Shown here in pieces: positions 11,930-55,219 of a stretch of DNA of 64,000 nucleotides. Within the stretch, counting starts at the first letter, position 1, and every line of letters starts with the position of its first letter. Made by a program: the position numbers and the translations under genes. Source of the DNA: Coleofasciculaceae cyanobacterium (GTDB lineage: Bacteria > Cyanobacteriota > Vampirovibrionia > Vampirovibrionales > Vampirovibrionaceae); contig DATNPJ010000034.1 of NCBI GenBank assembly GCA_036703295.1, forward strand, positions 262,451 to 326,450, written 5' to 3'. The notes below the pieces were generated by a model that made no database searches, was not told where the DNA came from, and saw nothing but the letters and a program-made list of their open reading frames with translations.

Positions 11930-11956
11930 TAAACTTTTGCCGAATTCTGCCGAAAA
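11930..11956 (+). promoter_or_regulatory. sigma-28 (FliA)-type promoter of the tad operon
   Basis: TAAACTTT-N11-GCCGAAAA, 7/8 and 7/8 matches to TAAAGTTT-N11-GCCGATAA, about 100 nt upstream of cpaB. Confidence 0.75.
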
Positions 11957-12054
11957 TACCCTGGTGACGAACCCCTGGTAATGAGCCAAGGTTTCCAAGG
12001 AGCCGCGCTCCGATTCAACGTCGGATGCTCGCAAGTGGAAAGGTAAGACCGTAC

Positions 12055-13107
12055 ATGCCAGCGCCCCGTAAACCCAAGAAAGTTCTCATCCAGTTCGCGA
12101 TTGCCCTGGTGGTCGCTGCCGTGCTGGGCATTGGCGCCGTGATTGCCGGCTTCTCCGTGATCATGTCGATTAATGATGGCGCGACCAAGGCGCAGGAGGA
12201 AGCAAAACAGGCAGCGGCAGAGGCCAAGGCGGAACTTGACAGAATTAAGAAGCAGAATGAGAAGCCTGTGGTGGAGGCGCCCCAGGAATTCGAAATTGTT
12301 CAGGCGGTTGGCGAAATCAAGCAGGGTGAGCCAATCACTCAGGGTAAATTGACCAAGCTTACAGTGAAAGAACGTCCGATGCCGGGTACTATCGAGAATT
12401 TGTCCCAGGCGGTCGGTAAAATCTCCAAGGTGCGGATCATTGAAGGTGAAATCCTGAATATGAGTAAGCTGATTGATTCCTCCAGCATGCTGAACGTTGA
12501 TACCGGCATGCGGGCCATTACCATCAACGTGGATAACATCGGCAGCCTGAACGGGGCTTTGATGCCCGGTATGCGGGTGGATGTTCTGGCCACGGTCAAG
12601 CAGGACGAGAAAGTGGTCACCCGCACCATGTTGCAAAACATCCAGGTGATAGGCGTTGGCAGTGGCGGTGCGGCGGCGGGGCCTGCAATGCCGACAATGC
12701 CGGCGGCATTGAGCTCCAAAATTCCCGCTCAGGTCAGTGCTCCCAGCGGTGGGGGGGCTGCCAGTGCAGTGACGTTCTTGGTCAGTCCCAAGCAAGCCGA
12801 GCTGCTGTCACTGGCCAACCAGACATCCCAGATTCATCTGACTTTACGCAACTACGGCGACAAGCAGGTAACGAAGGTGATGGGTGCTGATGTCAGTGTG
12901 CTGATGACCGGCATTGAGAGCGACACCGTCAAGAAATCGTTGCCTAATATGCCTTTCCCGCCGGGTGACAGTGGTTTTCATAATGTTAATTACGCGCCGG
13001 GCGGCAATCTGCCCAATCCGCCGGATGCCGTCGGTTCGTCAAAGAACAAGTTCAGTATGCGCATCTATCGGGGCACTGGCGCGGAAACCGTGGATTTTGA
13101 GCAGTGA
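12055..13107 (+). CDS. cpaB: Flp pilus assembly protein CpaB/RcpC
   Basis: N-terminal TM helix, SAF-like domain, GMRAITINVD...GAL.PG.RVDVL, T..MLQNI.V, VTFLVSP.QAE.L.LA. First gene of the tad cluster. Confidence 0.9.
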   Translation: MPAPRKPKKVLIQFAIALVVAAVLGIGAVIAGFSVIMSINDGATKAQEEAKQAAAEAKAELDRIKKQNEKPVVEAPQEFEIVQAVGEIKQGEPITQGKLTKLTVKERPMPGTIENLSQAVGKISKVRIIEGEILNMSKLIDSSSMLNVDTGMRAITINVDNIGSLNGALMPGMRVDVLATVKQDEKVVTRTMLQNIQVIGVGSGGAAAGPAMPTMPAALSSKIPAQVSAPSGGGAASAVTFLVSPKQAELLSLANQTSQIHLTLRNYGDKQVTKVMGADVSVLMTGIESDTVKKSLPNMPFPPGDSGFHNVNYAPGGNLPNPPDAVGSSKNKFSMRIYRGTGAETVDFEQ

Positions 13108-13132
13108 TGGACTTGGAAGAGCAGAGGAAGAC

Positions 13133-14650
13133 ATGAGTATGAGTGGGAGACGAGGAGCACGCATCGTGCCGGTAGCGATGGCCATCGCTATTGTGGCTCA
13201 GTTGCTGCCGGTTGTGACTTTGGCAGGCGAGGGTCCGGCAAAATCGACTGCTTATTCCGGCCAATTGCAAGGGGTTGGGTTTGATATCCCGATGCCGAAA
13301 GCTGGCAAAACTGCAGCAAAAAGCGATGATGACAAGTCCGGCTACGCTTTTCAGCAGTTGGATGAAGAGGGGGATGCGTCCCTGTCTTCGGGAAAGACAC
13401 TGCAAGGAACCGTGACCAGCATCAACGTGACGCGTGGTCGCTCACAAATCGTCAAGTTTGCCCAACCCATCATGCGCATGTCGATTGCCCAGCCTGATGT
13501 TGCGGATGTGATTCCGCTGGCTCCCGATCAAATCATGATCAACGGAAAGCTGCGCGGGGTGACTTCGCTCATTGTCTGGGATGAGAACGGTCAGGAAGGC
13601 ATCTTTGACCTCTACGTGCAAAACGATACCAGCGAGTTGCTGGAGGCGGTCAAGGCCGTGGCTCCCCGCGAGAAAATTCAGGCACGGGTAACGGATGACT
13701 CTTTCATCCTGACGGGGCAGGTGTCCAGCAGCGTGACCCTGGATGAAATCCGCAAGACTGCGGCGGCCTATGGCTACCGCGAGGACAAATTTATCGATCT
13801 GACCGATACGCCGGTACCCCAGGTGATGCTGGAAGTCAAAATGGTGGAAGCCAACCGCAGTGTCGGGCGGCAGTTGAAGACTTCCTTCAATCTGGAAAAT
13901 TCCAACCAGGCATTCAATGCCGTGCGTTTAGCCAATCCCATCGATGGCAAGGTTCTTGAGGGAGCCGCCCGTCAGACTAGCGGCTTAAGGGCTGATCGCT
14001 TGTTCAGGACGGGCTCGTCTCCCCTGAACAATATTGCGCTTAGCCAGGCAGGCGGCAATGTGGGTGGCCTTACCGGTTCCATGTATTGGGGCAAGCATTT
14101 CCAGAGCGTGTGGGACCTGTTGGAAACAAAGGGGAAGATCAACACGCTGGCCAACCCCACTCTGGTCTGTACTCACGGCCGTTCGGCCAGCTTCCTGGCT
14201 GGTGGTGAATTCCCCTTTGTCGGTTCCGTGGATGCCAACGGCAGTCCGATTGTATCGTATAAGGAATTTGGGGTGAAGCTCAATTTTACCCCCTGGATTG
14301 CCATCAAGTCCGGCCGGATCGAACTGACAGTTCAGCCCGAAGTCAGCAGCGTCGATTCATCCCATTGTGTCACTTCGACTTCCGGTAATCAGGTCTGCGG
14401 TATTTTGAAGCGGACCACCAATACGACCGTTGAATTGATGGATGGTGAAAGTTTGATGATTTCGGGGATTCTAAGCCGCGAAGAACAGAACACCTTTGCC
14501 AATGTCCCTTTCATCGCCAGCGTGCCAATTCTGGGCAACATGTTCAGAAATGCGAACATGTCCAAGAACGATAGCGAACTGATTGTGATTGTGACCCCGC
14601 ACATCATCAAATCGAGCGATTACGGCAGAATCCTGGGCGCTGCCCAATAG
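13133..14650 (+). CDS. cpaC: Tad secretin RcpA/CpaC
   Basis: Signal peptide; pilus-N domain (GRSQIV.F...I.R.SIA.PDVADV); QV.LEVK.VE; LANPTL...GRSASFLAGGEFP; EFGVKL.FTP; P...S.PILG.MFR; ELIVIVTP. Confidence 0.9.
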   Translation: MSMSGRRGARIVPVAMAIAIVAQLLPVVTLAGEGPAKSTAYSGQLQGVGFDIPMPKAGKTAAKSDDDKSGYAFQQLDEEGDASLSSGKTLQGTVTSINVTRGRSQIVKFAQPIMRMSIAQPDVADVIPLAPDQIMINGKLRGVTSLIVWDENGQEGIFDLYVQNDTSELLEAVKAVAPREKIQARVTDDSFILTGQVSSSVTLDEIRKTAAAYGYREDKFIDLTDTPVPQVMLEVKMVEANRSVGRQLKTSFNLENSNQAFNAVRLANPIDGKVLEGAARQTSGLRADRLFRTGSSPLNNIALSQAGGNVGGLTGSMYWGKHFQSVWDLLETKGKINTLANPTLVCTHGRSASFLAGGEFPFVGSVDANGSPIVSYKEFGVKLNFTPWIAIKSGRIELTVQPEVSSVDSSHCVTSTSGNQVCGILKRTTNTTVELMDGESLMISGILSREEQNTFANVPFIASVPILGNMFRNANMSKNDSELIVIVTPHIIKSSDYGRILGAAQ

Positions 14651-14680
14651 TTTCCGGAAATCTGGAGAAAATTCCAAATC

Positions 14681-15916
14681 ATGGCCGAACATCTGACAGT
14701 CCTGATCATCGACGAGGATGCCGCGAACCGGGCGTTGATCCGTGACACGCTGTCCGAGAACCAGAACGTGGAAATCCTGGCGGAAACGGACAGCCTGGTA
14801 TACGGCTATGAGCTGATTCGCCAGAACCGGCCCAAAATGGTGTTCATGGATCTTCGCCAGGATCCAGGCAAGGCGCTGGACATGGCCCGGCGCGTTTCCT
14901 CCTTTTTTAACGAAGTTCTGATGATCGCCTCGGGCGATACGATGAGCCTGGATATGATCAAAGCCTGCATGGAGGCCGGTGTTCGGGATTTCCTGCAACG
15001 GCCACTGCAAGCGGCTGATATTCGGAGCATCATCGATAAGCACAAAATGGCCCTGGTGGCGGATAACAAGGCGGGTGACCGCACCGGACGCATCGTGACA
15101 GTTTTCAGTAACAAGGGTGGCTTGGGTAAAACCACCATTGCCGTCAATTTGGCCATCGCCTTGTCCGAGACCGTCGGGAAACCCGTGGCCCTGGTCGATT
15201 TGAACCTGCAATTGGGGGACATCACCACTTTCCTGGATGTGGAACCCAAGCAGACCATTGTGGATATTGCGCGCAACATCGGGCGGGTCGATGCCGCCTA
15301 CCTCGAAAGCTCGCTGGCCCAGTTTGTCTGCCCCACCAACGGGGCGACCCTGCATGTGCTGGCCGATCCGCTGCACGTGGAAGACGCGGAGGAACTGACC
15401 GCCGATCAGATTAACGCGGTGTTGACCGTGCTTCGGGCGTCGTTTGAATACGTGGTGATTGATACGACCACTTCATTTGACACCAAGACCTTGGCCGCCT
15501 TGGATTTGGCGGATCATATCCTGCTGGTTTCCATGGTGAACCTGCCCAGTATCCGTAGCAGCCAGCGTTTGTTGAAATTGTTTGAACGCCTGGGTTACGA
15601 GGAACAAAAGATCAAGCTGACGCTGAATCGTTATATGCCGGACGAAGAGATCACCGTGGATGACGTGGAAGAGACATTGGAACACCAAGTTTTCTGGAAA
15701 ATCCCCAACGCCTACCAGGTGGTGATGACGGCCATCAACCGGGGGATTCCGATTGCCATGGTCGACAACGGACATAACATGCAGAAGAATTTCCTGGATT
15801 TTGCCGCCAAGCTGACTGGGGTTGTGCGTCCCACCACGAATGCCGGGTCGGCTGCCGCGCCCCAGCAGAAGAAAGAATCGAAGAGTATGCTGGGTGGGCT
15901 TTTTGGAAAACGTTGA
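14681..15916 (+). CDS. cpaE: pilus assembly protein CpaE/TadZ (receiver domain plus ParA/MinD-like ATPase)
   Basis: N-terminal REC domain (IIDED, VFMDL); KGGLGKTT deviant Walker A; LVDLNLQLGD; follows the secretin. Confidence 0.88.
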   Translation: MAEHLTVLIIDEDAANRALIRDTLSENQNVEILAETDSLVYGYELIRQNRPKMVFMDLRQDPGKALDMARRVSSFFNEVLMIASGDTMSLDMIKACMEAGVRDFLQRPLQAADIRSIIDKHKMALVADNKAGDRTGRIVTVFSNKGGLGKTTIAVNLAIALSETVGKPVALVDLNLQLGDITTFLDVEPKQTIVDIARNIGRVDAAYLESSLAQFVCPTNGATLHVLADPLHVEDAEELTADQINAVLTVLRASFEYVVIDTTTSFDTKTLAALDLADHILLVSMVNLPSIRSSQRLLKLFERLGYEEQKIKLTLNRYMPDEEITVDDVEETLEHQVFWKIPNAYQVVMTAINRGIPIAMVDNGHNMQKNFLDFAAKLTGVVRPTTNAGSAAAPQQKKESKSMLGGLFGKR

Positions 15917-15956
15917 AAGTCGGAAAAACACTGAGCAAGAGGAACGCTGAAGGTTT

Positions 15957-17441
<1,485 letters not shown>

Positions 17442-17457
17442 TCCGAGAGCCTGATCC

Positions 17458-18462
17458 ATGTCGATTGAGTTAACCCTGATTCTGATTCTGGTTTTCGCCG
17501 GACTGGCCACGCTGGCCGTGGGCTCTGCCGTGTTCTTCTTCCAGCGGTACAGCAATCCGGAGCCATCGGTGATCCAGCAGCGGCTGATCCGAATCAAGGC
17601 GAAACAGCAGCAGCAGGACAAGCAGGCGGAAACCGAGGCAATGCAGCGGTTTTCCAAGTTGTATAAAGAGGGTGGTTATAACAACGAGAACCTGGGCAAG
17701 CAGCTCGAACAGCTCAACTTTTTCAATCACCTGAAAACCATGATGCAACAGGCCGGCATGAAAACCCCACCGGACAAGTATTTCATTACCAGCATGCTGA
17801 TGCCTTCCATTCTGTTGATGGTGCTGGGACTGGCGATTGGTATGTTCCCACTGGCGCTGCTAGGTCCAGGCGCTGGGGTTTTGGCTTATTTTGTGGTGGT
17901 TTTCAAGCGCGGCAAGCGCTTCGATAAATTCGTCACCCAGTTGCCGGACGCCCTCTCCATGATCACCAGCGCCCTGCGGGCCGGGCATTCCTTCCAGTCA
18001 GCGCTTGGCGTGGTCGCAACCGAGTTGGCGGATCCCATCGGGTCCGAGTTCTCGAATATCGTACGGGATATTAACCTGGGGATTCCGGTGAAAGAAGCTT
18101 TGAATCGTATGGTCGGCAAGCTGGACGCCCTGCCCGATGTGCGCATGTTTGCAACCGCCGTCCTGATTCAACGGGAGGCGGGCGGGAACCTGGCCGAGAT
18201 TCTGGAGAAATTGGGCTACACCATTCGGGAACGCTTCAAACTGAAGGGGCAAATTGCTTCGCTGACCGGTCAGGCCCGATTGACCGGTTACGTTTTGGGT
18301 GGCGCGCCCGCCTTTCTGCTCGTGGGCTTGTCGCTCTTTATGTACAGTTACGTTAAACCCTTGTGGGAAACGGATTTGGGTCATGCTTTGCTGATTCTGG
18401 CCGTGATTATGCAGGGGATTGGATTTTTTATCATGAAAAAAATCGTCGACATCCGGGTGTAG
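17458..18462 (+). CDS. tadB: Tad inner-membrane platform protein TadB
   Basis: QLPDAL.MI.SALRAGHSF, GGNLAEILEKL..TIRER.KL.GQI.SLTGQAR. Confidence 0.92.
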   Translation: MSIELTLILILVFAGLATLAVGSAVFFFQRYSNPEPSVIQQRLIRIKAKQQQQDKQAETEAMQRFSKLYKEGGYNNENLGKQLEQLNFFNHLKTMMQQAGMKTPPDKYFITSMLMPSILLMVLGLAIGMFPLALLGPGAGVLAYFVVVFKRGKRFDKFVTQLPDALSMITSALRAGHSFQSALGVVATELADPIGSEFSNIVRDINLGIPVKEALNRMVGKLDALPDVRMFATAVLIQREAGGNLAEILEKLGYTIRERFKLKGQIASLTGQARLTGYVLGGAPAFLLVGLSLFMYSYVKPLWETDLGHALLILAVIMQGIGFFIMKKIVDIRV

Positions 18463-18465
18463 TGC

Positions 18466-19458
18466 ATGGATAAGACAGCCGCCACAGAAATCCTGAGTCC
18501 AAACCATATCGTGTTGCTGATTATCGGCGGCATTATTCTGATCCTCTCCATTTTTGGCGTGCTGGCGGTGCTGATCTCCATTTTGAACTACCAGGAAACT
18601 CCCGTACGCGATCGTCTGATGATGCTGAAAGACAAAGGGGCCACTTTCGAAGCGGGACAACGCAATTCCGGCGCGTTTGATGATCTGAAAGAGGCGCTGC
18701 TGACATATTCCGGCCCCATTTCCCAAAAACTTTACGGCGAGAACCAAAAGCTCCAGAAAGAGATTAAGCAGTTGCTGACGGAAGCCGGACTGCCGGACAC
18801 GGAAACCCATGTCTGGGCATTCTTGACCAACATGGTGGCGGCGGGTTTGGCTTTGGGCATCATTATGGGCGCGTTGGGCCTGTTGGTATCGGGATTCAAC
18901 GTGGCAATGGCTGCGGTCGGTCTGCTGGTCGGGTTTATTGTGGGAACCAAGCTCCCCAAGTTCCAGTTGCATGGCCGGACCAAAAGCCGTAAAACCGAGA
19001 TCCGGTTCGCCTTGCCCGATACGTTGGACCTGATGGTGGTTTGCGTGGAGGCCGGTCTCGGGCTGGACTCCACCATTCAGCGGGTGGCCGAGGAAACCGA
19101 ACGCATGGCGCCCGAAATTTCCCAGGAATTCAAGCGACTGAACAAGGAACTGAACGCCGGTATTTCTCGAATAGAGGCATTCCAGAACATGGGACAGCGG
19201 GCGGGAGTGGATGAACTCCGTTCGTTATGCGCCATGATTGTCCAGGCCGACAAGATGGGGACCAGCATTTCCGATACCTTGCGGGTGTATGCCGACGATT
19301 TGCGGGTTAAGCGGAAGCAGAAGGCGGAAGAACTCGCCTCCAAGGCCAGCATCAAGATGACGTTTCCGCTGGTCCTGTTTATTTTTCCGCCCATGTTCAT
19401 CGTGCTGATCGGTCCCACGGTCATTATGGCCATCCAGCAGTTCTTCCCCTCCAAATAG
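18466..19458 (+). CDS. tadC: Tad inner-membrane platform protein TadC
   Basis: LPDTLDLMVVCVEAGLGLD, Q.DKMGTSISDTLRV.ADD.R.KR.QKAEE.A.KAS.KM.FPLVLFIFP. Confidence 0.92.
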   Translation: MDKTAATEILSPNHIVLLIIGGIILILSIFGVLAVLISILNYQETPVRDRLMMLKDKGATFEAGQRNSGAFDDLKEALLTYSGPISQKLYGENQKLQKEIKQLLTEAGLPDTETHVWAFLTNMVAAGLALGIIMGALGLLVSGFNVAMAAVGLLVGFIVGTKLPKFQLHGRTKSRKTEIRFALPDTLDLMVVCVEAGLGLDSTIQRVAEETERMAPEISQEFKRLNKELNAGISRIEAFQNMGQRAGVDELRSLCAMIVQADKMGTSISDTLRVYADDLRVKRKQKAEELASKASIKMTFPLVLFIFPPMFIVLIGPTVIMAIQQFFPSK

Positions 19459-19492
19459 CGATCGCTGCCGCTGATTCGGCTAGAATAACGCT

Positions 19493-20314
19493 ATGCCACT
19501 ATTCACCCATAACACGCTGCGCCTGACCGAGCGCCGGATTCCCCTTCAGCGGTTGCCCCAGGCATTCGAGGGGCTTAAAATCGCGCAGATTTCGGACCTG
19601 CATTTTTACGAATATACCGATCACGCCTATTACGACCGCGTGGTGGAAGCCGTCAACGCGATGGCGCCGGATGTCATCGTGTTAACCGGCGATGTGGTGC
19701 ATTACGGTCCGGATTTTATTCCGGCGGCGGGGGCTTTTTTGAGGCGGTTGGAGGCCCGGCATGCCCGGCTGGCGATTCTGGGCAACCATGATTACCAGGA
19801 CGGGGCCATGAGTCGTCATATTGCCGCCATGTACGCCGACATCGGCTTTGAGTTGCTGGTCAACCAAAGCCGGGCCATCGAACAGGACGGCCATCGCCTT
19901 TGGTTTGCCGGGCTGGATGACTTGTACTACGGCGAGCCGGATATCGCGCGGGCACTTTCGGGTGTTCCCACGCAAGATGAGATGACCATTATGCTGGCGC
20001 ACAACCCGCTGCTGTTTGATCCGGTGGCCCTGGCAGGGCAAGGCCGGGTGGATTTGGTGATTTCCGGGCATACTCATGCCGGGCATATCTATATTCCCCC
20101 GCTGGGGCCGATTTACCGCAAGGTGTTCCGCATGAAGTACCGTTACGGCCTGTACGAGAAAAACGGCTGCCAGCTGCATGTGACCAGCGGCGTGGGCTCC
20201 GCTGCGTTTTATCTCAAAAAACACCGCATCGGCTTCCCCCGCCTCCGCTTCAATACCCACCCGGAAATCGCGGTGTTGGAGCTGGTTTCCGGAGATGTCA
20301 TCGCTTCAGTGTAG
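19493..20314 (+). CDS. calcineurin-like metallophosphoesterase (YkuE-like)
   Basis: SDLH, LTGDVV, LGNHD, LAHNP and SGHTHAG metal-binding motifs. Confidence 0.88.
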   Translation: MPLFTHNTLRLTERRIPLQRLPQAFEGLKIAQISDLHFYEYTDHAYYDRVVEAVNAMAPDVIVLTGDVVHYGPDFIPAAGAFLRRLEARHARLAILGNHDYQDGAMSRHIAAMYADIGFELLVNQSRAIEQDGHRLWFAGLDDLYYGEPDIARALSGVPTQDEMTIMLAHNPLLFDPVALAGQGRVDLVISGHTHAGHIYIPPLGPIYRKVFRMKYRYGLYEKNGCQLHVTSGVGSAAFYLKKHRIGFPRLRFNTHPEIAVLELVSGDVIASV

Positions 20315-20339
20315 GTACTCTCTTGCGTCCCGCCTTGGG

Positions 20340-21320: not shown

Positions 21321-21455
21321 ATGTCGGTTTTTCGTTTCCTCCTCGGGTCCAGGCTTGCCTTTCCGGATCCACTCTCCTACTATCGGTGAAAAGGGTCGGT
21401 TTTGACAAGCGTCCCTGACCAGAGAGGCACCGCGGCAACCGGACAAAGGGCTTTC

Positions 21456-22184: not shown

Positions 22185-22187
22185 CTA

Positions 22188-23773: not shown

Positions 23774-25540
<1,767 letters not shown>

Positions 25541-26851: not shown

Positions 26852-26878
26852 TAAAGTTTTCCTCCGGTTTGCCGATGC
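26852..26878 (+). promoter_or_regulatory. sigma-28-type promoter
   Basis: TAAAGTTT-N11-GCCGATGC with a perfect -35, upstream of the 69-aa ORF. Confidence 0.75.
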
Positions 26879-26954: not shown

Positions 26955-27164
26955 TTGAAATCGCGTAAAGGAAACTGGGGAGAACTCTTTGGCTTCGATA
27001 ACGAGGAAGAAGAGTTCGAGGTCCCGCTTGGATTGGAAAACGCGGAAGGCGAAGGGATTGAATTTCTGGACGAAGCCCATGAAGCCATCAATCGCCTGAG
27101 CCAGAAGACCAACAAGCGTGGCAGGCTGATGAGACAACCCCGGCGCGCCGAGAGCTGGTATTAA
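26955..27164 (+). CDS. small protein with acidic N-half and basic C-tail (69 aa)
   Basis: AAAGGAG RBS 7 nt before the TTG start; sigma-28-type promoter upstream. Confidence 0.7.
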   Translation: MKSRKGNWGELFGFDNEEEEFEVPLGLENAEGEGIEFLDEAHEAINRLSQKTNKRGRLMRQPRRAESWY

Positions 27165-27370
27165 GTCATCCTTTACAATTGAATCAGATTGTTTTTCCAA
27201 AGGGAGTCGCAAGACTCCCTTTGCGCATGGAGGGCACAATTCCGCCCAGGTGTCGTCTTGGGGCATCGTCCCGGAGTTCTGGCTGTCCGGATGAGGGGAA
27301 AAATGCGGAAAAATCCCCGGTCTCCTTGTGAATCAGCTAGAATAGGCTTGTTGAATCGAAGAGGACGATT

Positions 27371-29218
27371 ATGCCCGGTATTGTGGGCCACTCGGAAGGC
27401 ATCAAGAAAAACCTGCTGCACCGGCTTGAAAAGCTCTATCAGCGGCGCATTAAAGGTGGGCAGGTGTTGTCTTACGATCTGTCCGAGGAACTCTGCGAGC
27501 TGTCGCTGGCGATTAAGCGCGAAATTACCCTGCTGATGGACCTCCAGGGGCGGGTCGATCTGGTCATTGTCGGGGACGCCGAGAGCTTGGACCAGATTCC
27601 CAACATCACGCTGCCGGATAGTACCGATGGCCTCAGCAAGCGGTATTGCCTGACCACGCGCCTGGGCTGGAAGCCGCCCGCGCTTGGCGACCGGGTGACC
27701 CTGCTGCAATTTCACTTCCCGGTGATGGCGGTACTCATGGCAGGCATGAATCCCAAGTTGCCCGGCGGTTTCAGCCGCCAGTTCGGGGAGCATCCCCATT
27801 TCTGCGATGCGGTTTATCTCCTGCATCCAGTGCTGCACGTCTACGAAGGAGACGGGCGGGCTGCCGTGCGCCCGGAAGGTGAAAGCCGGAGGGAGCAGGC
27901 AACCGGGCTAATTTCCAACTGCGAGGCGCTGGAACCCATGACCGCCCGGCAGGTGGCGGAGGAACCTCTGGAAAAATGGATTGAATGGGCCGAACCGGTC
28001 TTTGAGGGCAACCGCCGTCAACGCACACGGGAGACGGAGCGGGCGCTGCTGATGGGCATCCATGCCAGCGGGCGGGAAGCCGAAAGCACGCTGGAGGATT
28101 CCCTGGACGAACTGCGGCAACTGGCCAAGACCGCCGGGGCCGTGGTGGTGGATGCGGTCAGTCAGGTGCGTTCGTCCCCGGACCCCAACACCTATCTTGG
28201 TTCCGGCAAGGCGGAGGAGCTGGCGTTTCTCATCCAGCAACTGGGGGTGAATTTGGTGATTGCCGATGACGAGATGACCCCGGTGCAGCAGCGAAACCTG
28301 GAGCGCATTTTGCGGGTGAAAGTCATTGATCGCACCGAGCTGATCCTGGATATCTTTGCCCAGCGCGCCCAGTCCCGCGAAGGGAAAATCCAGGTCGCGC
28401 TGGCCCAGTTGCAATACGAACTGCCCCGGCTGAAAGGGCGCGGACGCATATTCAGCCAACAAACCGCCGTGGGCGCCAAGGGGGGCATTGCCACCCGTGG
28501 CCCCGGTGAAACCAAGCTGGAGACCGATCGCCGCCTGCTGCGGGAGCGGATTACCACGCTGGAAAAAGAGGCCCACGAGGTGGTGCGGCATCGCCAGTTC
28601 CAGCGCCAGTCCCGCAAGCGGTCTAATGTGCCGCTGATTGCGCTGGTGGGCTACACCAACGCGGGTAAGTCCACCCTGATGAACCGCCTGACCCAGGCCG
28701 ACGTGCTGGCGGAAAACAAGCTGTTCGCCACGCTGGACCCGACCATTCGCAAGTTGTACATTGGCCCGCCAGGCGAGCAGCCGATTGAAGTGCTGCTGTC
28801 CGATACGGTGGGTTTTATTCGCAAGCTGCCCACGTTCCTGATTAAGGCCTTCCGGGCCACGCTGGAAGAGGCCGCTTCCGCCGATCTGCTCTGGCACGTC
28901 TGGGATGTCAGCCATCCTGAGCGTCTGAGCCAGGCCCAGTCCGTTCACGAGGTGTTGACGATGCTGTGGGAGGATTTGGAGATTGAGCCGCCGCCGCTCT
29001 GGACCGTCTGCAACAAGATCGATCAGCTCTCTAATTCCGAAGCCGAGCTGCCGGTGCTGACCGCCGGGTTGGAGCAGGCCTTTCCGGTGTCCGCCCTGAC
29101 CGGTGAAGGGTTGCCGGAGTTGTTGGACGCTGCCCGCATTTATCTGCTGGAGGCGCGGAACAAACGGCGGGAAGATGCGACCATGGAGTTGGCCTTTGAT
29201 CAGAAATCATATGAATAA
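27371..29218 (+). CDS. hflX: ribosome-splitting GTPase HflX with long N-terminal extension
   Basis: IDRT.LILDIFAQRA.S.EGK.QV.LAQL.Y.LPRL, GPGET.LE.DRR, G1 GYTNAGKS, LFATLDPT, DTVGFI, NKID. The N-terminus (G...GIKK..L.RL.KLY.RR) resembles cyanobacterial long HflX. Confidence 0.93.
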   Translation: MPGIVGHSEGIKKNLLHRLEKLYQRRIKGGQVLSYDLSEELCELSLAIKREITLLMDLQGRVDLVIVGDAESLDQIPNITLPDSTDGLSKRYCLTTRLGWKPPALGDRVTLLQFHFPVMAVLMAGMNPKLPGGFSRQFGEHPHFCDAVYLLHPVLHVYEGDGRAAVRPEGESRREQATGLISNCEALEPMTARQVAEEPLEKWIEWAEPVFEGNRRQRTRETERALLMGIHASGREAESTLEDSLDELRQLAKTAGAVVVDAVSQVRSSPDPNTYLGSGKAEELAFLIQQLGVNLVIADDEMTPVQQRNLERILRVKVIDRTELILDIFAQRAQSREGKIQVALAQLQYELPRLKGRGRIFSQQTAVGAKGGIATRGPGETKLETDRRLLRERITTLEKEAHEVVRHRQFQRQSRKRSNVPLIALVGYTNAGKSTLMNRLTQADVLAENKLFATLDPTIRKLYIGPPGEQPIEVLLSDTVGFIRKLPTFLIKAFRATLEEAASADLLWHVWDVSHPERLSQAQSVHEVLTMLWEDLEIEPPPLWTVCNKIDQLSNSEAELPVLTAGLEQAFPVSALTGEGLPELLDAARIYLLEARNKRREDATMELAFDQKSYE

Positions 29219-41221: not shown

Positions 41222-41248
41222 TCTAGTTTTTGGCTGCCCTGCCGATTC
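41222..41248 (+). promoter_or_regulatory. sigma-28-type promoter
   Basis: TCTAGTTT-N11-GCCGATTC, 40 nt upstream of the giant Flp-like gene. Confidence 0.62.
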
Positions 41249-41287: not shown

Positions 41288-42190
41288 ATGACCAATCGCC
41301 TTTCTGGAAATGTTCTGACAGAGTACGGAATTATCATTGCTCTTGTTGTGATTCTAGCCATTGGGGCAGTGACTCTGTTGGGAAGAACCACGTCTGACCT
41401 GTTTCAGAATACCGAGGACCAGCTTGCCAACCCAGCCGTAAAGGATTATATGAGCCTTCAATTCGGTTCGGCTTCCGGCAATGTTTATGATGCTTCCATG
41501 GGTAGTCGGGTGATGAGCCTCAACGCTCAGACGGGCATGCCATCGATTGGCATTGCTACCAGCAGCAGTGCTCCAGTGAATGCCACCAGTATAGATGGTA
41601 TGGTGACTAGCTCGCAGCAAACCTTGACGCTTGCCACGCAAATGGACCAACTCGCCCTGACCATTACAGACCCAAAAACAGTGCAATGGTTGGAAAAGAT
41701 TACTCAATACACGCATTATATGGCGGGTGCCGAGGGAGATTACAGTGGCGTACAGGCGCTCACTGTCAGTACCCCGGATTCCTCGACCTATACATCAGCC
41801 AATTCCCTCATGGATATCTATCGTTATCAGCAGGCGTTGGAAAAGCTTATCAATAGCCCGCCCAAAGATGCCAGCCCACAGGATATCCAGCAAATTACCA
41901 CCCTGGCGATGGATGCGTGGAATAATGCCGAGACCTTTAATGCGCAGCTTCAGCCCTATCTGAAAAATAATGGGGATATTGACAATGGGGCATTGGCAAA
42001 AAGCAACTTGGCCAACTCCAACAACGGCAAGATGACCGCCAAGAAATACGATCAACTGGTCAAATATGATACCTTGCAACAGAACGTCGTCACTGCCAGC
42101 AGTGATGGGAGCGCCACCAATACACCTGCCTTGCAATCCACTCTTCAGGATGCTGTCACGCTGAACAATACGACTCAATCGACGCCCTAA
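41288..42190 (+). CDS. giant Flp/type IVb-like prepilin (300 aa), paralog 1
   Basis: MTNRLSG|NVLTEYGIIIALVVILAIGAV has Gly-1, Glu+5, Tyr+6 and a hydrophobic helix. The body shares TGMPS, NATSIDG, YMAGAEG and PP motifs with the genes at 61535 and 62733. Confidence 0.8.
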   Translation: MTNRLSGNVLTEYGIIIALVVILAIGAVTLLGRTTSDLFQNTEDQLANPAVKDYMSLQFGSASGNVYDASMGSRVMSLNAQTGMPSIGIATSSSAPVNATSIDGMVTSSQQTLTLATQMDQLALTITDPKTVQWLEKITQYTHYMAGAEGDYSGVQALTVSTPDSSTYTSANSLMDIYRYQQALEKLINSPPKDASPQDIQQITTLAMDAWNNAETFNAQLQPYLKNNGDIDNGALAKSNLANSNNGKMTAKKYDQLVKYDTLQQNVVTASSDGSATNTPALQSTLQDAVTLNNTTQSTP

Positions 42191-44073: not shown

Positions 44074-44098
44074 GATGCGCCGCGATCAGAAGTGATCG

Positions 44099-44233
44099 TT
44101 AGATGGCAATCTTGTGGCGGCCTTTGGCCCGGCGACGGTTGAGGGTGCGCTGCCCACCGGGGGTGGCCATTCTGGCGCGGAAACCGCTCACGCGACGTCT
44201 TTTGCGTTGTGTCCCTTCCAGGGTGCGTTTCAT
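44099..44233 (-). CDS. rpmH: 50S ribosomal protein L34 (not in ORF track)
   Basis: Hand translation gives [44 protein letters not shown]; GGAG RBS upstream. Confidence 0.97.
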
Positions 44234-46057: not shown

Positions 46058-46137
46058 AGATTTTTGAGGTGCCAGGCAATTTTCAAAATTCAGGTGCTTT
46101 GTCTGCTTGGAAATCATTAGTTTGAAAGGAATTCCAC

Positions 46138-46380
46138 ATGAACTTACCTCCTCTGTCTCCCGATCATTTTCAAATGATGAGACTTTCCCAAGGGTTTGAA
46201 GGATGGGGGAACCATCATCAAACATATTTGGTCCCGAGACTACAACCTAACTCTATTGGGTACTCGATTCCTCTTGTATTAACCTCAACGGACAAGCATG
46301 GCGCATATCAGATTTTTCCACCAGCAAGTCGTCAGCCTGGGAAACTTGAGCTTGCAGACGACCAATTCATAAAGAGATAG
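46138..46380 (+). CDS. small AT-rich hypothetical protein (80 aa)
   Basis: GAAAGGA RBS 7 nt before the ATG; no recognisable motif. Confidence 0.45.
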   Translation: MNLPPLSPDHFQMMRLSQGFEGWGNHHQTYLVPRLQPNSIGYSIPLVLTSTDKHGAYQIFPPASRQPGKLELADDQFIKR

Positions 46381-46436
46381 TTTTTAAAAACATTTTTCGC
46401 CTAAGGTTGCTTTGGTTCGTACTATCCGTACATAGG

Positions 46437-47714: not shown

Positions 47715-47796
47715 ACAATAAACACAACGTTTTGCCTGAAAGGCATAGTTTTATTTATAATCTTCAAGTTTAATATGACGGTGGAATGGATTCATC

Positions 47797-48099
47797 ATGA
47801 TGCAGATACCTCTGTGGCCTTTTGCTAAAGTGGAAGAGGACGTCAAAAAGAGACAAAAGAGGGTTTTAGGCGCTGGCGTATTGGCTTGTGTTCTTGCGGT
47901 AGGTGGTGATAAGGGTGCAGAAGTGGCCGCCGATACTTATGTTCAGCATCATTATCCGACAATGGAAGCTGGTATGCGAGAGAAGATAACGAATGGCATT
48001 GGCACTTTGTTTTTTTTGCTTGCTGGCAGCCTAGGTGGCCTGAACCTCTTGCGAGTCAGTTATAAGATGCTTAAAGAACAACAGGCAGATTCGAAATAG
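47797..48099 (+). CDS. small hypothetical membrane protein (100 aa)
   Basis: Two hydrophobic segments; followed by a terminator. Confidence 0.6.
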   Translation: MMQIPLWPFAKVEEDVKKRQKRVLGAGVLACVLAVGGDKGAEVAADTYVQHHYPTMEAGMREKITNGIGTLFFLLAGSLGGLNLLRVSYKMLKEQQADSK

Positions 48100-48179
48100 A
48101 CACCCCAATGGATTATTGCTGTGTGCACCCAGAGAATAGATATCTGCTGCCAAGTTTCGTGCGTTTTTTATAGATGCAA

Positions 48180-48205
48180 AAGAGCCTCCCATCCGGGAGG
48201 CTCTT
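48180..48205. terminator. bidirectional intrinsic terminator
   Basis: AAGAGCCTCCC-atcc-GGGAGGCTCTT (11-bp stem) between convergent small genes. Confidence 0.85.
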
Positions 48206-48241
48206 CAAAACCCTAGCGTTCTGTCCCTTGTGTCTATGAAG

Positions 48242-48397
48242 CTATTTCACGCTGACCAGGTGTGGCGTAACGCCCAGTTCGCTTTGGAGCATTTTGGCCT
48301 TGGCATAGGCCATGGTCCGGCGTTTTTCGGCGCCCTTGATGACAAAATGGACCGGAAAAGCTGTATTTTTGCTGGGTTTACGCTGATTGCTCGTCAT
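48242..48397 (-). CDS. small basic protein (51 aa, not in ORF track)
   Basis: Hand translation MTSNQRKPSKNTAFPVHFVIKGAEKRRTMAYAKAKMLQSELGVTPHLVSVK*; GGAGG upstream, sigma-28-type promoter, terminator downstream. Confidence 0.68.
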   Translation of the reverse strand: MTSNQRKPSKNTAFPVHFVIKGAEKRRTMAYAKAKMLQSELGVTPHLVSVK

Positions 48398-48439
48398 GTT
48401 TTAAACTCTGCCTCCGCCGTCGGGTCTCTGTAATAATGG

Positions 48440-48466
48440 CTATCGACGAGCCGGCAAAAATCTTTA
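48440..48466 (-). promoter_or_regulatory. sigma-28-type promoter
   Basis: Minus strand reads TAAAGATT-N11-GTCGATAG, 43 nt upstream of the 51-aa ORF. Confidence 0.72.
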
Positions 48467-48741
48467 ACGAAAGGGTGAAAATCTCGCGCAAAAAGATTAA
48501 TATTTGTTTACAGGTGCCGTCATTGCTTGTTAAAGCCATCGTCAGGCATCCGGACAGGCAGAAGAATTGCTATCGTTTATAATGGTAAGGCGTCGGCTTC
48601 CCCCCGGCCCGCTATGAGAAATACAAGAACCGGATCAGAGGCCTATGATAGACTTCTTTCGACAGCATTCCCGCTGGATAGCGGCAATAATGGTGCTTTC
48701 ATTCTTGCTAACCTCCTTTATCGTCCTTTTCTGACTTGTTT

Positions 48742-49917
48742 ATGAGCATATTTCCCGGAACGAGAGCGCTTAAAAGTTTCCTCTGCCTGCTATTGGCGGT
48801 GGGTTTGATGTGCGGTGCCGTGCCGGGTGGCTTTGCGGATAATCGCAGTCGTCTCCAGGAATTGCAGGGTAAAACTCGGTCAGTGAAGGCCCAGGCCGCC
48901 GAGATGCGTCGGAAGAAATACGAAAAAATGCGTGCCGCGCAGCGCGTCAGCATGAACATCGCGGCCAACCAGCAGCGTTTGGAGCGTGAAAAGCGTTCCC
49001 TGAAGTTTCATGAACAGCGCTTGGGCCAGACCAAGGACAGGCTAGTGTACCTGGATGACCGGCTGGACCGGACTATGGGCGATGCCATGCGGCTGGGACA
49101 GGATGCCGGACAAAGGCTGCGGAGCCTGTACATGGGTGAGCGCCTCAGCATGCTGCAAATGATTCTGGAAGCCAATGATCTCTCTACGCTGCTGGATCGG
49201 ATCTACTATAAAAAGCAGATTATGGCGCAGGACAAGCGGGTGCTGGACAATTTGCGCTCTAAAATCCAGGAGTTGAACGGTCTGAAGACGGAACTGGCCC
49301 GTCAAAAGACGCTGATTGGGCAGACCATTGCCACCATCCGAGTGAAAAATGTTGAAATACAGCGCTCTATTTCTATCGATCGGGTTTTGCGTGACAAGTA
49401 TAAAAACGATGCCGCTTTCTATGATCGCGCGGAATCAGAGCTTTTGGCCGAATCCGCGAATATTACCTCTCAAATTCGGGCTCTGACGTCCCGGCGCTCA
49501 TTCCGACAGGTTCGTGGCAGTACGGGCAGCTTTATTTGGCCAATCAGCGGATCGATTTCCTCCGGTTTCGGGTCTCGTTTTCACCCGATCCACAGGCGCA
49601 CCAAGATGCATACCGGTCTGGATATTGCCGGTCCCAACCGGGGAGCGGTCCGCGCCGCAGATGGCGGCCAGGTCATTTGGGCTGGTTGGAAAGGCGGGTA
49701 CGGAAAGGCCATCATGATTAACCACGGTACCCGGAACGGTCGGAACCTGGTCACTCTGTACGGCCATTTGTCCTCAATTTCAGTATCATCCGGGGAAAAT
49801 GTTTCCAAGGGACAGGTGATTGGCGCGGAAGGCTCCACGGGATACTCAACTGGGCCGCATTTGCACTTTGAGGTCCGGGTGGATGGCGCGCCCGTCAATC
49901 CGATGGGCTACCTGTAG
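48742..49917 (+). CDS. coiled-coil plus M23 peptidase (EnvC/NlpD-like murein hydrolase or activator)
   Basis: Signal peptide and long coiled coil; WP..G.ISS.FG.R.HP, HTGLD, T.YGHL, STGPHLHFEVR. Zn ligands appear intact. Confidence 0.9.
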   Translation: MSIFPGTRALKSFLCLLLAVGLMCGAVPGGFADNRSRLQELQGKTRSVKAQAAEMRRKKYEKMRAAQRVSMNIAANQQRLEREKRSLKFHEQRLGQTKDRLVYLDDRLDRTMGDAMRLGQDAGQRLRSLYMGERLSMLQMILEANDLSTLLDRIYYKKQIMAQDKRVLDNLRSKIQELNGLKTELARQKTLIGQTIATIRVKNVEIQRSISIDRVLRDKYKNDAAFYDRAESELLAESANITSQIRALTSRRSFRQVRGSTGSFIWPISGSISSGFGSRFHPIHRRTKMHTGLDIAGPNRGAVRAADGGQVIWAGWKGGYGKAIMINHGTRNGRNLVTLYGHLSSISVSSGENVSKGQVIGAEGSTGYSTGPHLHFEVRVDGAPVNPMGYL

Positions 49918-50133
49918 ACTGGTGGCGGCAGCGTGATCGTGGAAGGCAATCCGGGAAGCCCAACCGTTTTTGTTCAGAAAAAGTCTGGTAGAATATTGAC
50001 GTGTTAAGAAGATATTAAAATTATTTCCGAAACTCGTTAGAACTTTTTTTTGCTCGTGGCATCATTGACTCTCAACAGCAAAACTCAGCTATCATGCCTG
50101 GGCCCGCTCGCTAACAAATATAAGGATTTTCCT

Positions 50134-52302: not shown

Positions 52303-52494
52303 GGATTGCGGAGTCAAGGCCCTGTCCTGCCTTCGGAATCGTTCCGGCAGCGGCCTGAAAAGGCATGCCAATATGGCTTTTTTTGTTTTACATTTTTGTT
52401 GCGGTTTTGGAAAGTCGGCTTTGGATTGTGCTAGACTAGCCTCGCTCGCAACACCAGAGACACTCCCTCAAAGTATCAATCCGGGAAAACATTT

Positions 52495-53409
52495 ATGACC
52501 CTTCGAGATTGGTTCGCATCCAAGCGTAATAAGTCCAAAAAGCTGGATGTAGCTGCCATGAATAACCGCCTTACGGACGAAGAGCTCTGCAAGCTTTGGA
52601 CTCAGTGCTTTAACTGCCATGAGAACCTGCCCACCAAGGATCTGGAGAGTAACTATCTGGTCTGCATGCATTGCGGCTACCACTTCCGGATTGGCGCGCA
52701 CAAGCGCATTTTGCAGCTGTGCGATGATTTTACCGAGATGGATGAAGACTTGACTCCCTCGGATCCGCTGGAATTCACGGACACCGAGCCCTATATCAAG
52801 CGTCAGGAAGATGCCCGCAATAAAAGCGGCCTGAATGAAGCCATTGTAACGGGTATCGGGCAGATCGGAAATGAGCAATTGGCTCTGGCTGTGATGGATT
52901 TCAGCTATCTGGGCGGCAGTATGGGCAGCGTGGTGGGCGAAAAAATCACCCGCCTCATTGAAAAAGCCCTGGAGCTGCGTTTGCCACTCGTGATTTTCTC
53001 CTCTTCCGGCGGCGCCCGGATGCAAGAAGGAACTTTTTCCTTGATGCAGATGGTAAAGACCGGCGCTGCGCTGGCCAAGCTGCACGAGGCGGGTCTGTTG
53101 TACCTTTCGGTGCTGACCGAACCCACCTTCGGTGGGGTGACGGCCAGCTTTGGGACATTGGGCGATATCATCATCGCCGAGGAAGGGGCCCGGATCGGTT
53201 TTGCCGGACGCCGGGTCATCGAGCAGACCATCCGGCAAAAGCTGCCCGCGGATTTCCAGACGGCCAACTACCTGTTGAACTATGGGCAGGTGGATATGGT
53301 ATTGAACCGCAGCGAGCTTCCCGGAATGATCGTCAACCTGATTCGCCTGCACCGGGAGTCTTCCGGACAGCAGCCGCTTGCACAACCGCTCAGCTCCTCG
53401 CCGGTTTAG
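52495..53409 (+). CDS. accD: acetyl-CoA carboxylase carboxyltransferase beta subunit
   Basis: C4 Zn finger (C..C / C..C), MDFS.LGGSMGSVVGEKI, SGGARMQEG, PTFGGVTASF, IGFAGRRVI. Confidence 0.96.
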   Translation: MTLRDWFASKRNKSKKLDVAAMNNRLTDEELCKLWTQCFNCHENLPTKDLESNYLVCMHCGYHFRIGAHKRILQLCDDFTEMDEDLTPSDPLEFTDTEPYIKRQEDARNKSGLNEAIVTGIGQIGNEQLALAVMDFSYLGGSMGSVVGEKITRLIEKALELRLPLVIFSSSGGARMQEGTFSLMQMVKTGAALAKLHEAGLLYLSVLTEPTFGGVTASFGTLGDIIIAEEGARIGFAGRRVIEQTIRQKLPADFQTANYLLNYGQVDMVLNRSELPGMIVNLIRLHRESSGQQPLAQPLSSSPV

Positions 53410-53453
53410 GAGGGGTTGCCTTGAGCGCCTTGCCATGTAAGGAATACTAGAAA

Positions 53454-54443
53454 ATGTCAGACAAGATTCTTCCTTTGGACTTTGAAAAACCTGTCATTGC
53501 AATGGAAGAGAAGATCGAGGAACTGATGCAGCTCAGCCAGGACTCCAAAATCGATTTCAACGAGGAAATTGCCAAGCTTCGCGCCCAGGCCGAGGATGTC
53601 AAATCCAAACTGTACCAGCGTCTGACGCCCTCCCAGAAATTGCAGATCGCCCGCCATCCCCAGCGCCCCAATTTGCTGGAAACGGTGAAGATGCTCTCGC
53701 CCAACATGTGGATCGAGTTGCGCGGCGACCGTGCGGGTTCCGATGACCGGGCCATCATTGGCGGCATCATCGAGCTGTCCACCGGTCCGGTGATGGTGGT
53801 GGGCACCCAAAAAGGCCGTGGGATGAAGGAAAACCTGGTTCATAACTTCGGGATGGCCCATCCCGAGGGCTACCGCAAAGCCTTGCGTCTTTTCTACCAT
53901 GCGGAAAAATTCAAGATGCCGGTGCTGACCGTGGTGGATACGCCCGGTGCTTATCCGGGGATTGCCGGGGAAGAGCATGGCATTGGCCAGGCGATTGCCT
54001 ACAACATCCGCGAACTGGCCCGCCTTCGGGTGCCGATTGTTTCGATTGTCACCGGGGAAGGTGCTTCCGGCGGTGCATTGGGAATCGGGGTGGCCAACCG
54101 CATCTACATGATGGAGCATGCCCTGTATACCGTGATTTCACCGGAAGGTTGCGCATCCATTCTCTGGCGCAGCGCCGAGTATGCTTCCCGTGCGGCGGAA
54201 GCCCTCCGTATTACCGCCCAGGATCTGCTGGAGTTTGGCATGGTGGACGGCATCATTGAAGAGCCCTCAGGCGGCGCGCATCACGATCCGGCGCTGGCCG
54301 CCCAGCGGATTCTGGAAACCGTGGAAACCGCATTTACCGAGCTGAAGGGCCTGAAGGCCGAACAGTTGGTGGATGACCGTTACGCCAAGTTCCGCAAAAT
54401 CGGCGCCTTCCAGGAGAGCAAGACTGCGGCGCTTTCTTCGTAG
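53454..54443 (+). CDS. accA: acetyl-CoA carboxylase carboxyltransferase alpha subunit
   Basis: LDFEKP, ARHPQRP, GDR...DD.AI.GG, NFGM..PEGYRKA, DTPGAYPG, GEGASGGALG, VISPEGCASILW. Confidence 0.96.
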   Translation: MSDKILPLDFEKPVIAMEEKIEELMQLSQDSKIDFNEEIAKLRAQAEDVKSKLYQRLTPSQKLQIARHPQRPNLLETVKMLSPNMWIELRGDRAGSDDRAIIGGIIELSTGPVMVVGTQKGRGMKENLVHNFGMAHPEGYRKALRLFYHAEKFKMPVLTVVDTPGAYPGIAGEEHGIGQAIAYNIRELARLRVPIVSIVTGEGASGGALGIGVANRIYMMEHALYTVISPEGCASILWRSAEYASRAAEALRITAQDLLEFGMVDGIIEEPSGGAHHDPALAAQRILETVETAFTELKGLKAEQLVDDRYAKFRKIGAFQESKTAALSS

Positions 54444-54733
54444 GTTGGTCCTTCCGGTTTTGAAGAGATCTGTTGCCTTTGCCCGCAGGGCGGTGTTATT
54501 GAACTATCGTTCCAGGTGTTTGGGTTTGGCTGCCGGGAACTCCTTCTGTCGCAGAGATGGGGTGCCGGAAGCCTTTCAGCCCTGTGAAACGGCTTGTTGT
54601 TAAGGATTGTAAATGTTTGCATATCCTTCGGGGGATTGCTAGCACCAGATTTGCTTGACCCCGTTCATGCAAGTGCAAGCAAACACAAAACGAAAGACGC
54701 CCCTTACCGGGAGATGATGAGGAAGTTTTTCCA

Positions 54734-55015
54734 ATGGCTACAACGTATCATGCCCTGACTACTTTCAACGTCAATGAACTTGAGAACCTGCCGGAATACG
54801 AAGGCACCAGCCAACGTTTTCTGGAAGGCTTCCCCCCGTTCGTGATGTTGAAAAAGGAGCAGGCCGTCCGCACGCTGCTGAAAGAGGAAATCCCCAATGA
54901 GACCCTGGTGAAAAACCCGGATTTCATTGCGGCGATTGCCAACCGCGTGGTGGACGAAGCCCTGGTTGAAAAGCGCTATATTTTCCTGTCTCTGAATCCG
55001 GTCGTTCCTGCTTAG
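54734..55015 (+). CDS. small hypothetical protein (93 aa)
   Basis: GAGGA RBS; host-like codon usage; globular-looking sequence; terminator downstream. Confidence 0.7.
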   Translation: MATTYHALTTFNVNELENLPEYEGTSQRFLEGFPPFVMLKKEQAVRTLLKEEIPNETLVKNPDFIAAIANRVVDEALVEKRYIFLSLNPVVPA

Positions 55016-55107
55016 GCAGGAACCCGGACCAAGAGCGGATTTTTGCTGTTCCATTTTTCTGTAATTTGGGGCGGCAAATGACCTGAAATAAAACTGTTGT
55101 TCTCCTG

Positions 55108-55140
55108 GCCAGCTCCCCGACGCAGGGTGCTGGCTTTTTT
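55108..55140 (+). terminator. intrinsic terminator
   Basis: GCCAGC...GCTGGC stem followed by a T-tract. Confidence 0.7.
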
Positions 55141-55192
55141 CTTGGATTGTAAATAATTGTTTCTTTTGGATATCTCCGGTATCTCCAGCCTT

Positions 55193-55219
55193 TGAAGTTT
55201 TGGTCAATCCTGCCGATAC
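55193..55219 (+). promoter_or_regulatory. sigma-28-type promoter
   Basis: TGAAGTTT-N11-GCCGATAC (7/8 and 7/8), 34 nt upstream of ATG 55253. Confidence 0.75.

Follow-up and report, generated by a model that had tools for sequence, protein, structure and literature searches.

Predicted sigma-28-type promoters before lineage-restricted genes and prepilin genes in relatives of Vampirovibrio chlorellavorus, with a probable input to the Tad pilus operon

In the predator Bdellovibrio, the sigma factor FliA controls most attack-phase genes (PMC3627812; PMC5430801), and the TAD operon/flp1 promoter was FliA dependent in an E. coli reporter (Avidan 2017, PMC5430801). FliA control of Tad pili has already been shown experimentally there, and the case described here is not the first of its kind. 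In oxygenic cyanobacteria, the group 3 factor SigF drives pilA1 via TAGGC (-32) and GGTAA (-12), and E. coli sigma-28 cannot replace SigF (Asayama and Imamura 2008, PMC2532724). A member of a sister class in the same phylum, Vampirovibrio chlorellavorus, is a flagellated, alga-killing predator of Chlorella for which one sigma-28 gene is annotated (Table S2 of PMC4451040). It swims with a single polar flagellum and carries pili in bundles. Our literature search found no papers on Vampirovibrio promoters or sigma factors. Here we analyze a 64-kb stretch of contig DATNPJ010000034.1 (the window), which is the part of the source genome that our analysis covered. An initial annotation, made from the letters of the DNA, had proposed five sigma-28-type sites in this window, before a Tad pilus operon, a giant Flp pilin gene, and three genes encoding proteins of 69, 51, and 444 amino acids (aa), here called orf69, orf51, and p444. 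We arrive at the reading, to which we assign a probability of roughly 75%, that sigma-28 promoters serve orf69, orf51, p444, and many prepilin genes of the order Vampirovibrionales, with a probable input to the Tad operon.

All five 27-mers are present at the proposed positions and strands, each with a spacer of 11 nucleotides (nt). Intergenic DNA makes up 12.9% of the window, and all five sites are intergenic and face a start codon 34 to 99 nt downstream (Table 1). We scanned the whole window for the consensus TAAAGTTT-N11-GCCGATAA with up to three mismatches. Exactly four sites were found (11930+, 26852+, 48466-, and 55193+) versus 0.38 expected, and 0 of 100 shuffled sequences contained four. 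The fifth site, at 41222, has four mismatches, and about 10 further four-mismatch matches occur in the window, mostly within genes. A position weight matrix (PWM) was then trained only on the orf51 and p444 orthologous sites of other genomes. By box sequence and spacing, the sites at 26852, 48466, and 55193 fit the sigma-28 promoter type with 24 to 25 bits, 11930 is a moderate match, and 41222 falls short of it. Therefore, four of the five matches proposed as good hold up, and the fifth lies at background level. Six matches in the window scored at least 15 bits versus 0.57 expected, and 16 scored at least 11 bits versus 4.7 expected. The next-best matches by PWM (47910, 51701, 58759, and 7187) all lie within open reading frames (ORFs), and none of the housekeeping genes of the window is preceded by a site of comparable score, in agreement with the earlier observation. 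Across 522 kb of Vampirovibrionales loci, 24 sites reached 18 bits, whereas the dnaA loci of other phyla (930 kb) had none. Orthology and the training set both raise these counts, although the footprint pattern does not rest on them.

Table 1. Coordinates of the features discussed, numbered from the first nucleotide of the window
Feature	Coordinates	Strand	Description
cpaB-specific conserved DNA block	11869..11929	+	TTCATTCGGAyrGAGGATmAG-N19-21-GTATGsTG-N5-6-GGAGGAAG
Moderate sigma-28-like site before cpaB	11930..11956	+	TAAACTTT-N11-GCCGAAAA, 99 nt before cpaB; 16.5 bits, fourth best in window
Tad pilus operon	12055..20314	+	cpaB, cpaC secretin, receiver (REC)-domain CpaE, cpaF, tadB, tadC, metallophosphoesterase
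Predicted sigma-28-type promoter of orf69	26852..26878	+	TAAAGTTT-N11-GCCGATGC; 24.3 bits with a PWM that holds no orf69 site
orf69, conserved 69-aa protein without assigned function	26955..27164	+	TTG start after AAGGAG
Weak candidate site before flp300	41222..41248	+	TCTAGTTT-N11-GCCGATTC; 11.3 bits, 16th of 20 PWM matches
flp300, 300-aa protein with Flp-type prepilin N terminus	41288..42190	+	G/NVLTEYGIII..., from translation
orf51, conserved basic 51-aa protein without assigned function	48242..48397	-	Downstream of dnaA, divergent from M23 peptidase gene
Predicted sigma-28-type promoter of orf51	48440..48466	-	TAAAGATT-N11-GTCGATAG; 24.3 bits
Predicted sigma-28-type promoter of p444	55193..55219	+	TGAAGTTT-N11-GCCGATAC; 24.9 bits
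p444, 444-aa protein of a small lineage-restricted family	55253..56587	+	From homologue alignment
flp300 paralogue, 337 aa	61535-62548	+	About 30% identity over full length, shared G..LTEYG motif
flp300 paralogue, 335 aa	62733-63740	+	About 30% identity over full length, shared G..LTEYG motif

The motif as resolved at the three strong sites consists of a -35 box T(A/G)AAGnTT and a -10 box G(C/T)CGAT(A/G)n with 11 nt between them. Selection on such an element should keep the boxes while the spacer and flanks drift, and this pattern was found for orf51 (12 of 12 orthologues), p444 (7 loci), orf69 (4 of 4), and cpaB, the first gene of the Tad operon (4 of 8 lineages). Orthologues of orf51 and p444 were present in loci fetched around dnaA. 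Every orf51 orthologue retains TAAAGnTT and G(C/T)CGATAG upstream, around at least five different spacer sequences, one lineage having a 12-nt spacer. Both orf69 boxes are preserved with differing spacers in L089, L090, and L091. The p444 promoter is conserved in L005, L007, L009, L011, L012, and L017 and in the non-syntenic L089. Six loci keep TGAAGTT(T/C)-N11-GCCGAnnn; the distant L017 has TCAAGATG-N11-GCCGATAA, and the family member at a different genomic place in L089 has TGAAGTTT-N11-GCCGAAGG. No sigma-70-like site was found in the orf69 intergenic region or near the orf51 promoter. The proposal of sigma-28-type sites before these three genes is thus borne out by both score and orthologous footprints, and the comparisons indicate that orf69, orf51, and p444 are preceded by a genuine sigma-28-like promoter element under selection.

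Type IV prepilin genes provide what we regard, from their upstream sequences, as the strongest evidence for a sigma-28-type promoter and for its use by pilus genes in the order. An alignment of one type IV (N_methyl) prepilin family led to 80 metagenome loci, several of these having 55 to 90% translated identity to Vampirovibrionales loci in their non-pilin genes. We scored the 200 nt before the mature N terminus with a PWM that had no pilin promoter in its training set. Among 82 genes of the family in Vampirovibrionales-like contigs, a site of at least 15 bits preceded 23, and 30 had one of at least 13 bits, versus 0 of 75 control regions. Between the end of the -10 box and the Gly codon lay 39 to 94 nt. 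The 23 sites yield exactly TAAAGTTT-N11-GCCGATAA as their consensus, and CGA is invariant among them. V. chlorellavorus itself (L014) has two type IV prepilin genes close to dnaA; upstream of them stand TAAAGTTT-N11-GCCGATAC (25.9 bits) and TAAAGTTT-N11-GTCGATAT (19.9 bits). Sites of 16.0 and 19.3 bits stand before a pilin gene of a Vampirovibrio sp. (L086) and the gene for a 72-aa Flp pilin (L037), respectively. Together with cpaB in four of eight lineages, these genes extend the suggested link between motif and pilus across the order.

Three further observations come from other loci. One prepilin gene (L019, 11466-12053, minus strand) has an in-frame stop, either as a pseudogene or through a sequencing error, and still carries TGGACTTT-N11-GCCGATAC upstream. 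On the opposite strand of the same locus, a gene for a 334-aa Met/Gln-rich protein without assigned function has an 18.9-bit site. In L109, a 22.8-bit sigma-28-like site (627, minus strand) precedes a gene for a 119-aa helix-turn-helix protein (Pfam HTH_3), which could be a regulator within the regulon.

The homologue comparisons also indicate that orf69, orf51, and p444 are real conserved genes of lineage-restricted families. The orf69 family comprises 26 clusters with 55 to 88% identity and an invariant C-terminal half, FLEEAHEA.NRL.QKTNKRG..M.QPRRAESW. In all syntenic loci of relatives, orf69 has an oppF-like ABC ATPase gene on one side and hflX on the other. It stands directly 5' of hflX (27371-29218 in the window), and a TTG start with a strong AGGAG was seen in every case. 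A functional link of orf69 to the ribosome-splitting GTPase HflX is possible. Between the two genes, at about 27203-27224, there is a hairpin, GGGAGTC-GCAA-GACTCCC, followed by TTTG. The orf51 protein is 70 to 86% identical across 11 Vampirovibrionales loci. Neither orf69 nor orf51 has a relative in Pfam, NCBIfam, or the PDB. The product of the M23 peptidase gene (48736-49917), which diverges from orf51 in conserved synteny, contains a PcsB-like coiled coil. In Bacillus, sigma-28 (SigD) has cell-wall hydrolases among its targets, but we found no sigma-28-like site directed at the M23 peptidase gene here.

The p444 family has 58 representatives among 1.84 billion. Conserved features are PLY.GGP and GLKVTTDG.G in the N-terminal part, a Gly/Gln-rich disordered C-terminal half, and a basic C terminus, RRRPLAF.A. 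No Pfam domain was found in 37 members, NCBIfam gave no match, and there was no PDB relative with either the single sequence or the 37-member profile. The AlphaFold2 (AF2) model has a predicted local distance difference test score (pLDDT) of 54 and a predicted template modeling score (pTM) of 0.21, and about half of the protein is predicted to be disordered. A recurring element, GGATTGTAAAT..TTG...(G)ATATCC, was seen in the window at 54608-54640 and 55145-55180, in orthologous p444 upstream regions, and at 8560-8600 of L151. In most p444 orthologues, a GGATATCC-like palindrome lies 15 to 25 nt 5' of the promoter's -35 box, and TTGTAA-type elements are present before other genes too. The recurring GGATTGTAAAT or TTGTAA-type element could serve as a regulator site or represent the -35 box of housekeeping promoters in this lineage.

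The window covers the replication-origin region of a bacterial chromosome, with rpmH-rnpA-yidD-yidC opposite dnaA. By Pfam annotation, it also holds the complete Tad operon, hflX, def-fmt-rsmB, accD-accA, and ordinary metabolic genes. Its DnaA protein is also present on metagenome contigs, and the nearest relatives among species genomes are V. chlorellavorus and other Vampirovibrionales (75 to 81% identity). Therefore, the host is a non-photosynthetic cyanobacterium of the predatory Vampirovibrio group and not a Bdellovibrio relative; judged by DnaA, it is an uncultured relative of V. chlorellavorus. The earlier guess of a motile, prey-seeking program fits such an organism, since V. chlorellavorus is a flagellated Chlorella predator with a reported sigma-28 gene.

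We propose the following mechanism. The sites at 26852, 48466 (minus strand), and 55193 would be promoters for RNA polymerase carrying a sigma-28 factor of the FliA/SigD/WhiG type, and each would produce a short monocistronic transcript for orf69, orf51, or p444. Elsewhere in the order, promoters of this type would also serve numerous type IV prepilin genes and at least one gene for an Flp pilin. At 11930, where a distinct conserved control element lies upstream, the Tad operon would probably gain a sigma-28 input. What we observe is a motif that exceeds chance, is conserved, and goes with pilin genes. FliA dependence and the timing of expression are our extrapolation: the factor would be the flagellar FliA, and all these genes would be induced jointly while the cells swim freely in search of prey, as happens in Bdellovibrio. 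A broader and more speculative version, which we hold to be rather doubtful, is that the flagellar sigma factor of Vampirovibrionales became, through an expansion separate from that in Bdellovibrio, the master switch of a free-swimming "attack" stage. Such a switch would co-induce a large set of type IV pilins, the order-specific orf51, orf69, and p444, and, in some lineages, also the Tad pilus. The products of these three order-specific genes would have a direct part in the search for algal prey or in attachment to it.

The Tad operon carries cpaB, cpaC, cpaE, cpaF, tadB, and tadC together, as a Tad locus should. Its products match Pfam RcpC, Secretin with T2SS-T3SS_pil_N, Response_reg with a ParA-like domain, T2SSE, T2SSF (twice), and Metallophos. 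Neither a prepilin peptidase gene nor a short Flp gene lies in the operon. Orthologues of cpaB with 41 to 84% identity occur in identical gene order in seven further loci, which were obtained by homologue search and contig look-ups; a metagenome scan with the CpaB protein found no relative. The CpaE/TadZ-like ATPase (14681-15916) has an N-terminal response-regulator receiver domain that is conserved in all related loci, and upstream of the operon (2001-3962) a gene for a GGDEF protein and one for a TPR protein are found in conserved synteny. The receiver domain and the GGDEF neighbor hint at phosphorylation and cyclic di-GMP inputs to pilus assembly.

Upstream of cpaB, the sigma-28-like site stands at a fixed position after the conserved block in the window and L088 (16.5 bits), L087 (16.7 bits), and L093 (18.0 bits), and the spacers differ. 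L094 has the -10 box only (GCCGATGA kept), and L086 has the -35 box only. The block ends three bases before the -35-like TAAACTTT. It is present in all eight cpaB loci and nowhere else in the window or in the other loci, and it is better conserved than the adjoining site. Its positions in the related loci are 9792 (L085), 9862 (L086), 9777 (L087), 527 (L088), 9798 (L092), 9788 (L093), and 9811 (L094). Rfam gave no match across the window at the gathering threshold, nor in 11700-12100 at E values up to 10. A structured RNA before cpaB was considered and rejected, as RNAalifold on seven lineages gave -0.41 kcal/mol without covariation. The block is probably protein-binding DNA, such as an activator site, or a second promoter. 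Because the sigma-28-like site is kept in four of eight lineages and is lost or halved elsewhere, the link to the Tad pilus appears real in this lineage but partial across the order. The proposed sigma-28-type site for the Tad pilus therefore stands in part: it scores 16.5 bits and is positionally kept in four of eight lineages, but it is absent in V. chlorellavorus and L092 and adjoins a better conserved block. Sigma-28 input to the operon is probably secondary to this block, which would carry most of the regulation.

For the Tad operon alone, it is conceivable, if on the unlikely side, that cpaB is transcribed mainly via the 61-nt block, acting as an activator site and/or as a promoter with the -10 box TATGCT. 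The sigma-28-like match would then be a lineage-specific add-on or partly a by-product of the TAAACTT end of the block. The block is largely invariant in 8 of 8 lineages, with the -10-like GCCGA lost in three, and L086 keeps the -35-like TAAACTT without a -10 box. However, four lineages (window/L088, L087, and L093) keep the -10 box at exactly 11 nt despite differing spacers, with 16.5 to 18.0 bits, and the retention of GCCGATGA in L094 would be unexpected without selection. In addition, no sigma-70-like promoter was called in the cpaB intergenic region.

The site proposed for the giant Flp gene drew no support from the analysis. The flp300 protein has the prepilin motif G/XXXXEY followed by a hydrophobic helix (SG/NVLTEYGIIIALVVILAIGAV), and residues 11 to 40 weakly match the Tad pilins 8u1k and 8u2b (E 0.24 to 0.37). 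However, Flp family members have about 50 to 80 aa and match a family model, and flp300 has 300 aa and no Pfam or NCBIfam match. Therefore, it is Flp-like at the N terminus only and is not placed in the Flp family; the label "giant Flp" is plausible to that extent. No homologue was found outside its own cluster, and the gene is absent from the rsmB-yidC gap of relatives. The 300- to 337-aa paralogues share a long, partly helical C-terminal part without a Pfam match, and AF2 on flp300 with its two paralogues gave a pLDDT of 44. By sequence, the three appear to form a lineage-specific family of oversized Flp-like proteins, the homologue search having used the 300-aa copy only. The 41222 site has an A-to-T change at an invariant -35 position, and a sigma-28 site before flp300 is conceivable but not supported, given the background score (11.3 bits), the lack of an orthologue, and paralogues without good sites. 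Upstream of the two paralogues and of an Flp-like gene in L009, we found only -10-like boxes with a poor -35 box, totaling less than 4 bits.

Could the matches in general reflect chance or another sequence constraint, such as, at 41222, a terminator of the def-fmt-rsmB operon? At 41222 itself the score, the lack of orthologues, and the paralogues without sites all agree with this, and the site overlaps a weak terminator-like hairpin with a T-run. However, the terminator reading was rejected, because the hairpin fold is no more stable than shuffles (z = -0.57). Moreover, only about 0.004 matches of the 41222 score are expected per 100-nt upstream region, and the other four sites are not chance by counts and conservation. 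As an account of the whole set, we consider this explanation very improbable.

Several points weigh against the proposed sigma-28 regulon and its assignment to FliA. Pfam annotation of the 64-kb window revealed no sigma factor, flagellar, or chemotaxis genes. A sequence search of 586 kb of fetched Vampirovibrionales DNA found neither FliA nor flagellin, and the cognate sigma-28 factor is known solely through the annotation of the relative V. chlorellavorus. The locus counts are not independent events, because the comparison loci were picked by synteny and two of the five sites had orthologues in the PWM training set. Neither cpaB box is present in L085 (V. chlorellavorus) and L092. The 41222 site is indistinguishable from chance by score, because the window holds 16 matches of at least 11 bits versus 4.7 expected, and the best sigma-28-like matches upstream of the flp300 paralogues score below 0 bits. 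Finally, the one flagellin gene that we could inspect, in L151, lacks any site reaching 11 bits within the 720 nt upstream of it. The initial annotation had expected flagellin-type genes among the motif matches, and this single gene did not provide one.

The L151 flagellin was confirmed by Pfam Flagellin_N and Flagellin_C. In this Vampirovibrionales-like contig (8623-8832 and 8906-9742), the flagellin gene lies directly upstream of a prepilin gene, and a 69-aa ORF without assigned function precedes the flagellin gene. The pilin gene beside the flagellin gene has a 13.9-bit site. Such an arrangement bears on the alternative that a sigma-28-family factor here serves pili and predator-specific genes rather than the flagellum, so that "flagellar regulon" would be the wrong label. 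Candidates would be a second FliA-like paralogue or a FliA with the flagellin gene lost from its regulon. The genes behind the motif agree with this alternative, since they are pilin genes, cpaB, and three families without assigned function, none of them flagellar, and in L151 it is the adjoining pilin gene and not the flagellin gene that carries the motif. However, the consensus is identical to that of flagellar FliA/SigD, and V. chlorellavorus is reported to have one sigma-28 gene. In addition, late flagellar genes were hardly sampled, as the loci had been fetched around pilins, dnaA, cpaB, and orf69 and contained one flagellin locus of uncertain lineage. On balance we consider this alternative improbable and prefer the flagellar FliA as the candidate.

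What is known of the life cycle of Vampirovibrio, a destroyer of Chlorella cultures, comes only from microscopy and genome annotation. A recognizable promoter code would allow stage-specific genes to be predicted from sequence in every Vampirovibrionales genome, and, if our reading is true, it would give the first handle on such genes in a predator that has no genetic system. On the strength of their upstream motifs, orf51, orf69, p444, and one prepilin family are candidates for a role in the motile or the attachment stage.

Compared with canonical class 3 flagellar promoters of the sigma-28 (FliA/SigD/WhiG) type, the sites described here have both boxes, the 11-nt spacing, and the invariant CGA core, and the consensus of the 23 pilin sites is the enterobacterial one. 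Unlike in those systems, no late flagellar or chemotaxis gene was found behind the motif, with one flagellin locus examined. The SigF/pilA1 system of oxygenic cyanobacteria, in the sister class of the phylum, likewise uses an alternative, non-housekeeping sigma factor for a pilin gene and motility. However, its promoter code is a different one, as our motif belongs to the FliA type. The closest parallel is Bdellovibrio bacteriovorus, a flagellated predator with sigma-28-type promoters before its Tad operon, pilin genes, and many lineage-specific genes without assigned function; co-induction of pili with the free-swimming, prey-seeking stage would be a further likeness. FliA dependence was established there by reporter assays, whereas here it is proposed from sequence. 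The Tad link is partial in our case (four of eight lineages), and the clearest pilus targets are type IV (N_methyl) prepilins. The present host belongs to Cyanobacteriota, class Vampirovibrionia, and its relatives attack eukaryotic algal prey epibiotically. Since this host and Bdellovibrio are of separate descent, a FliA-driven attack phase in both, if true, would represent convergent regulatory evolution in two unrelated predators.

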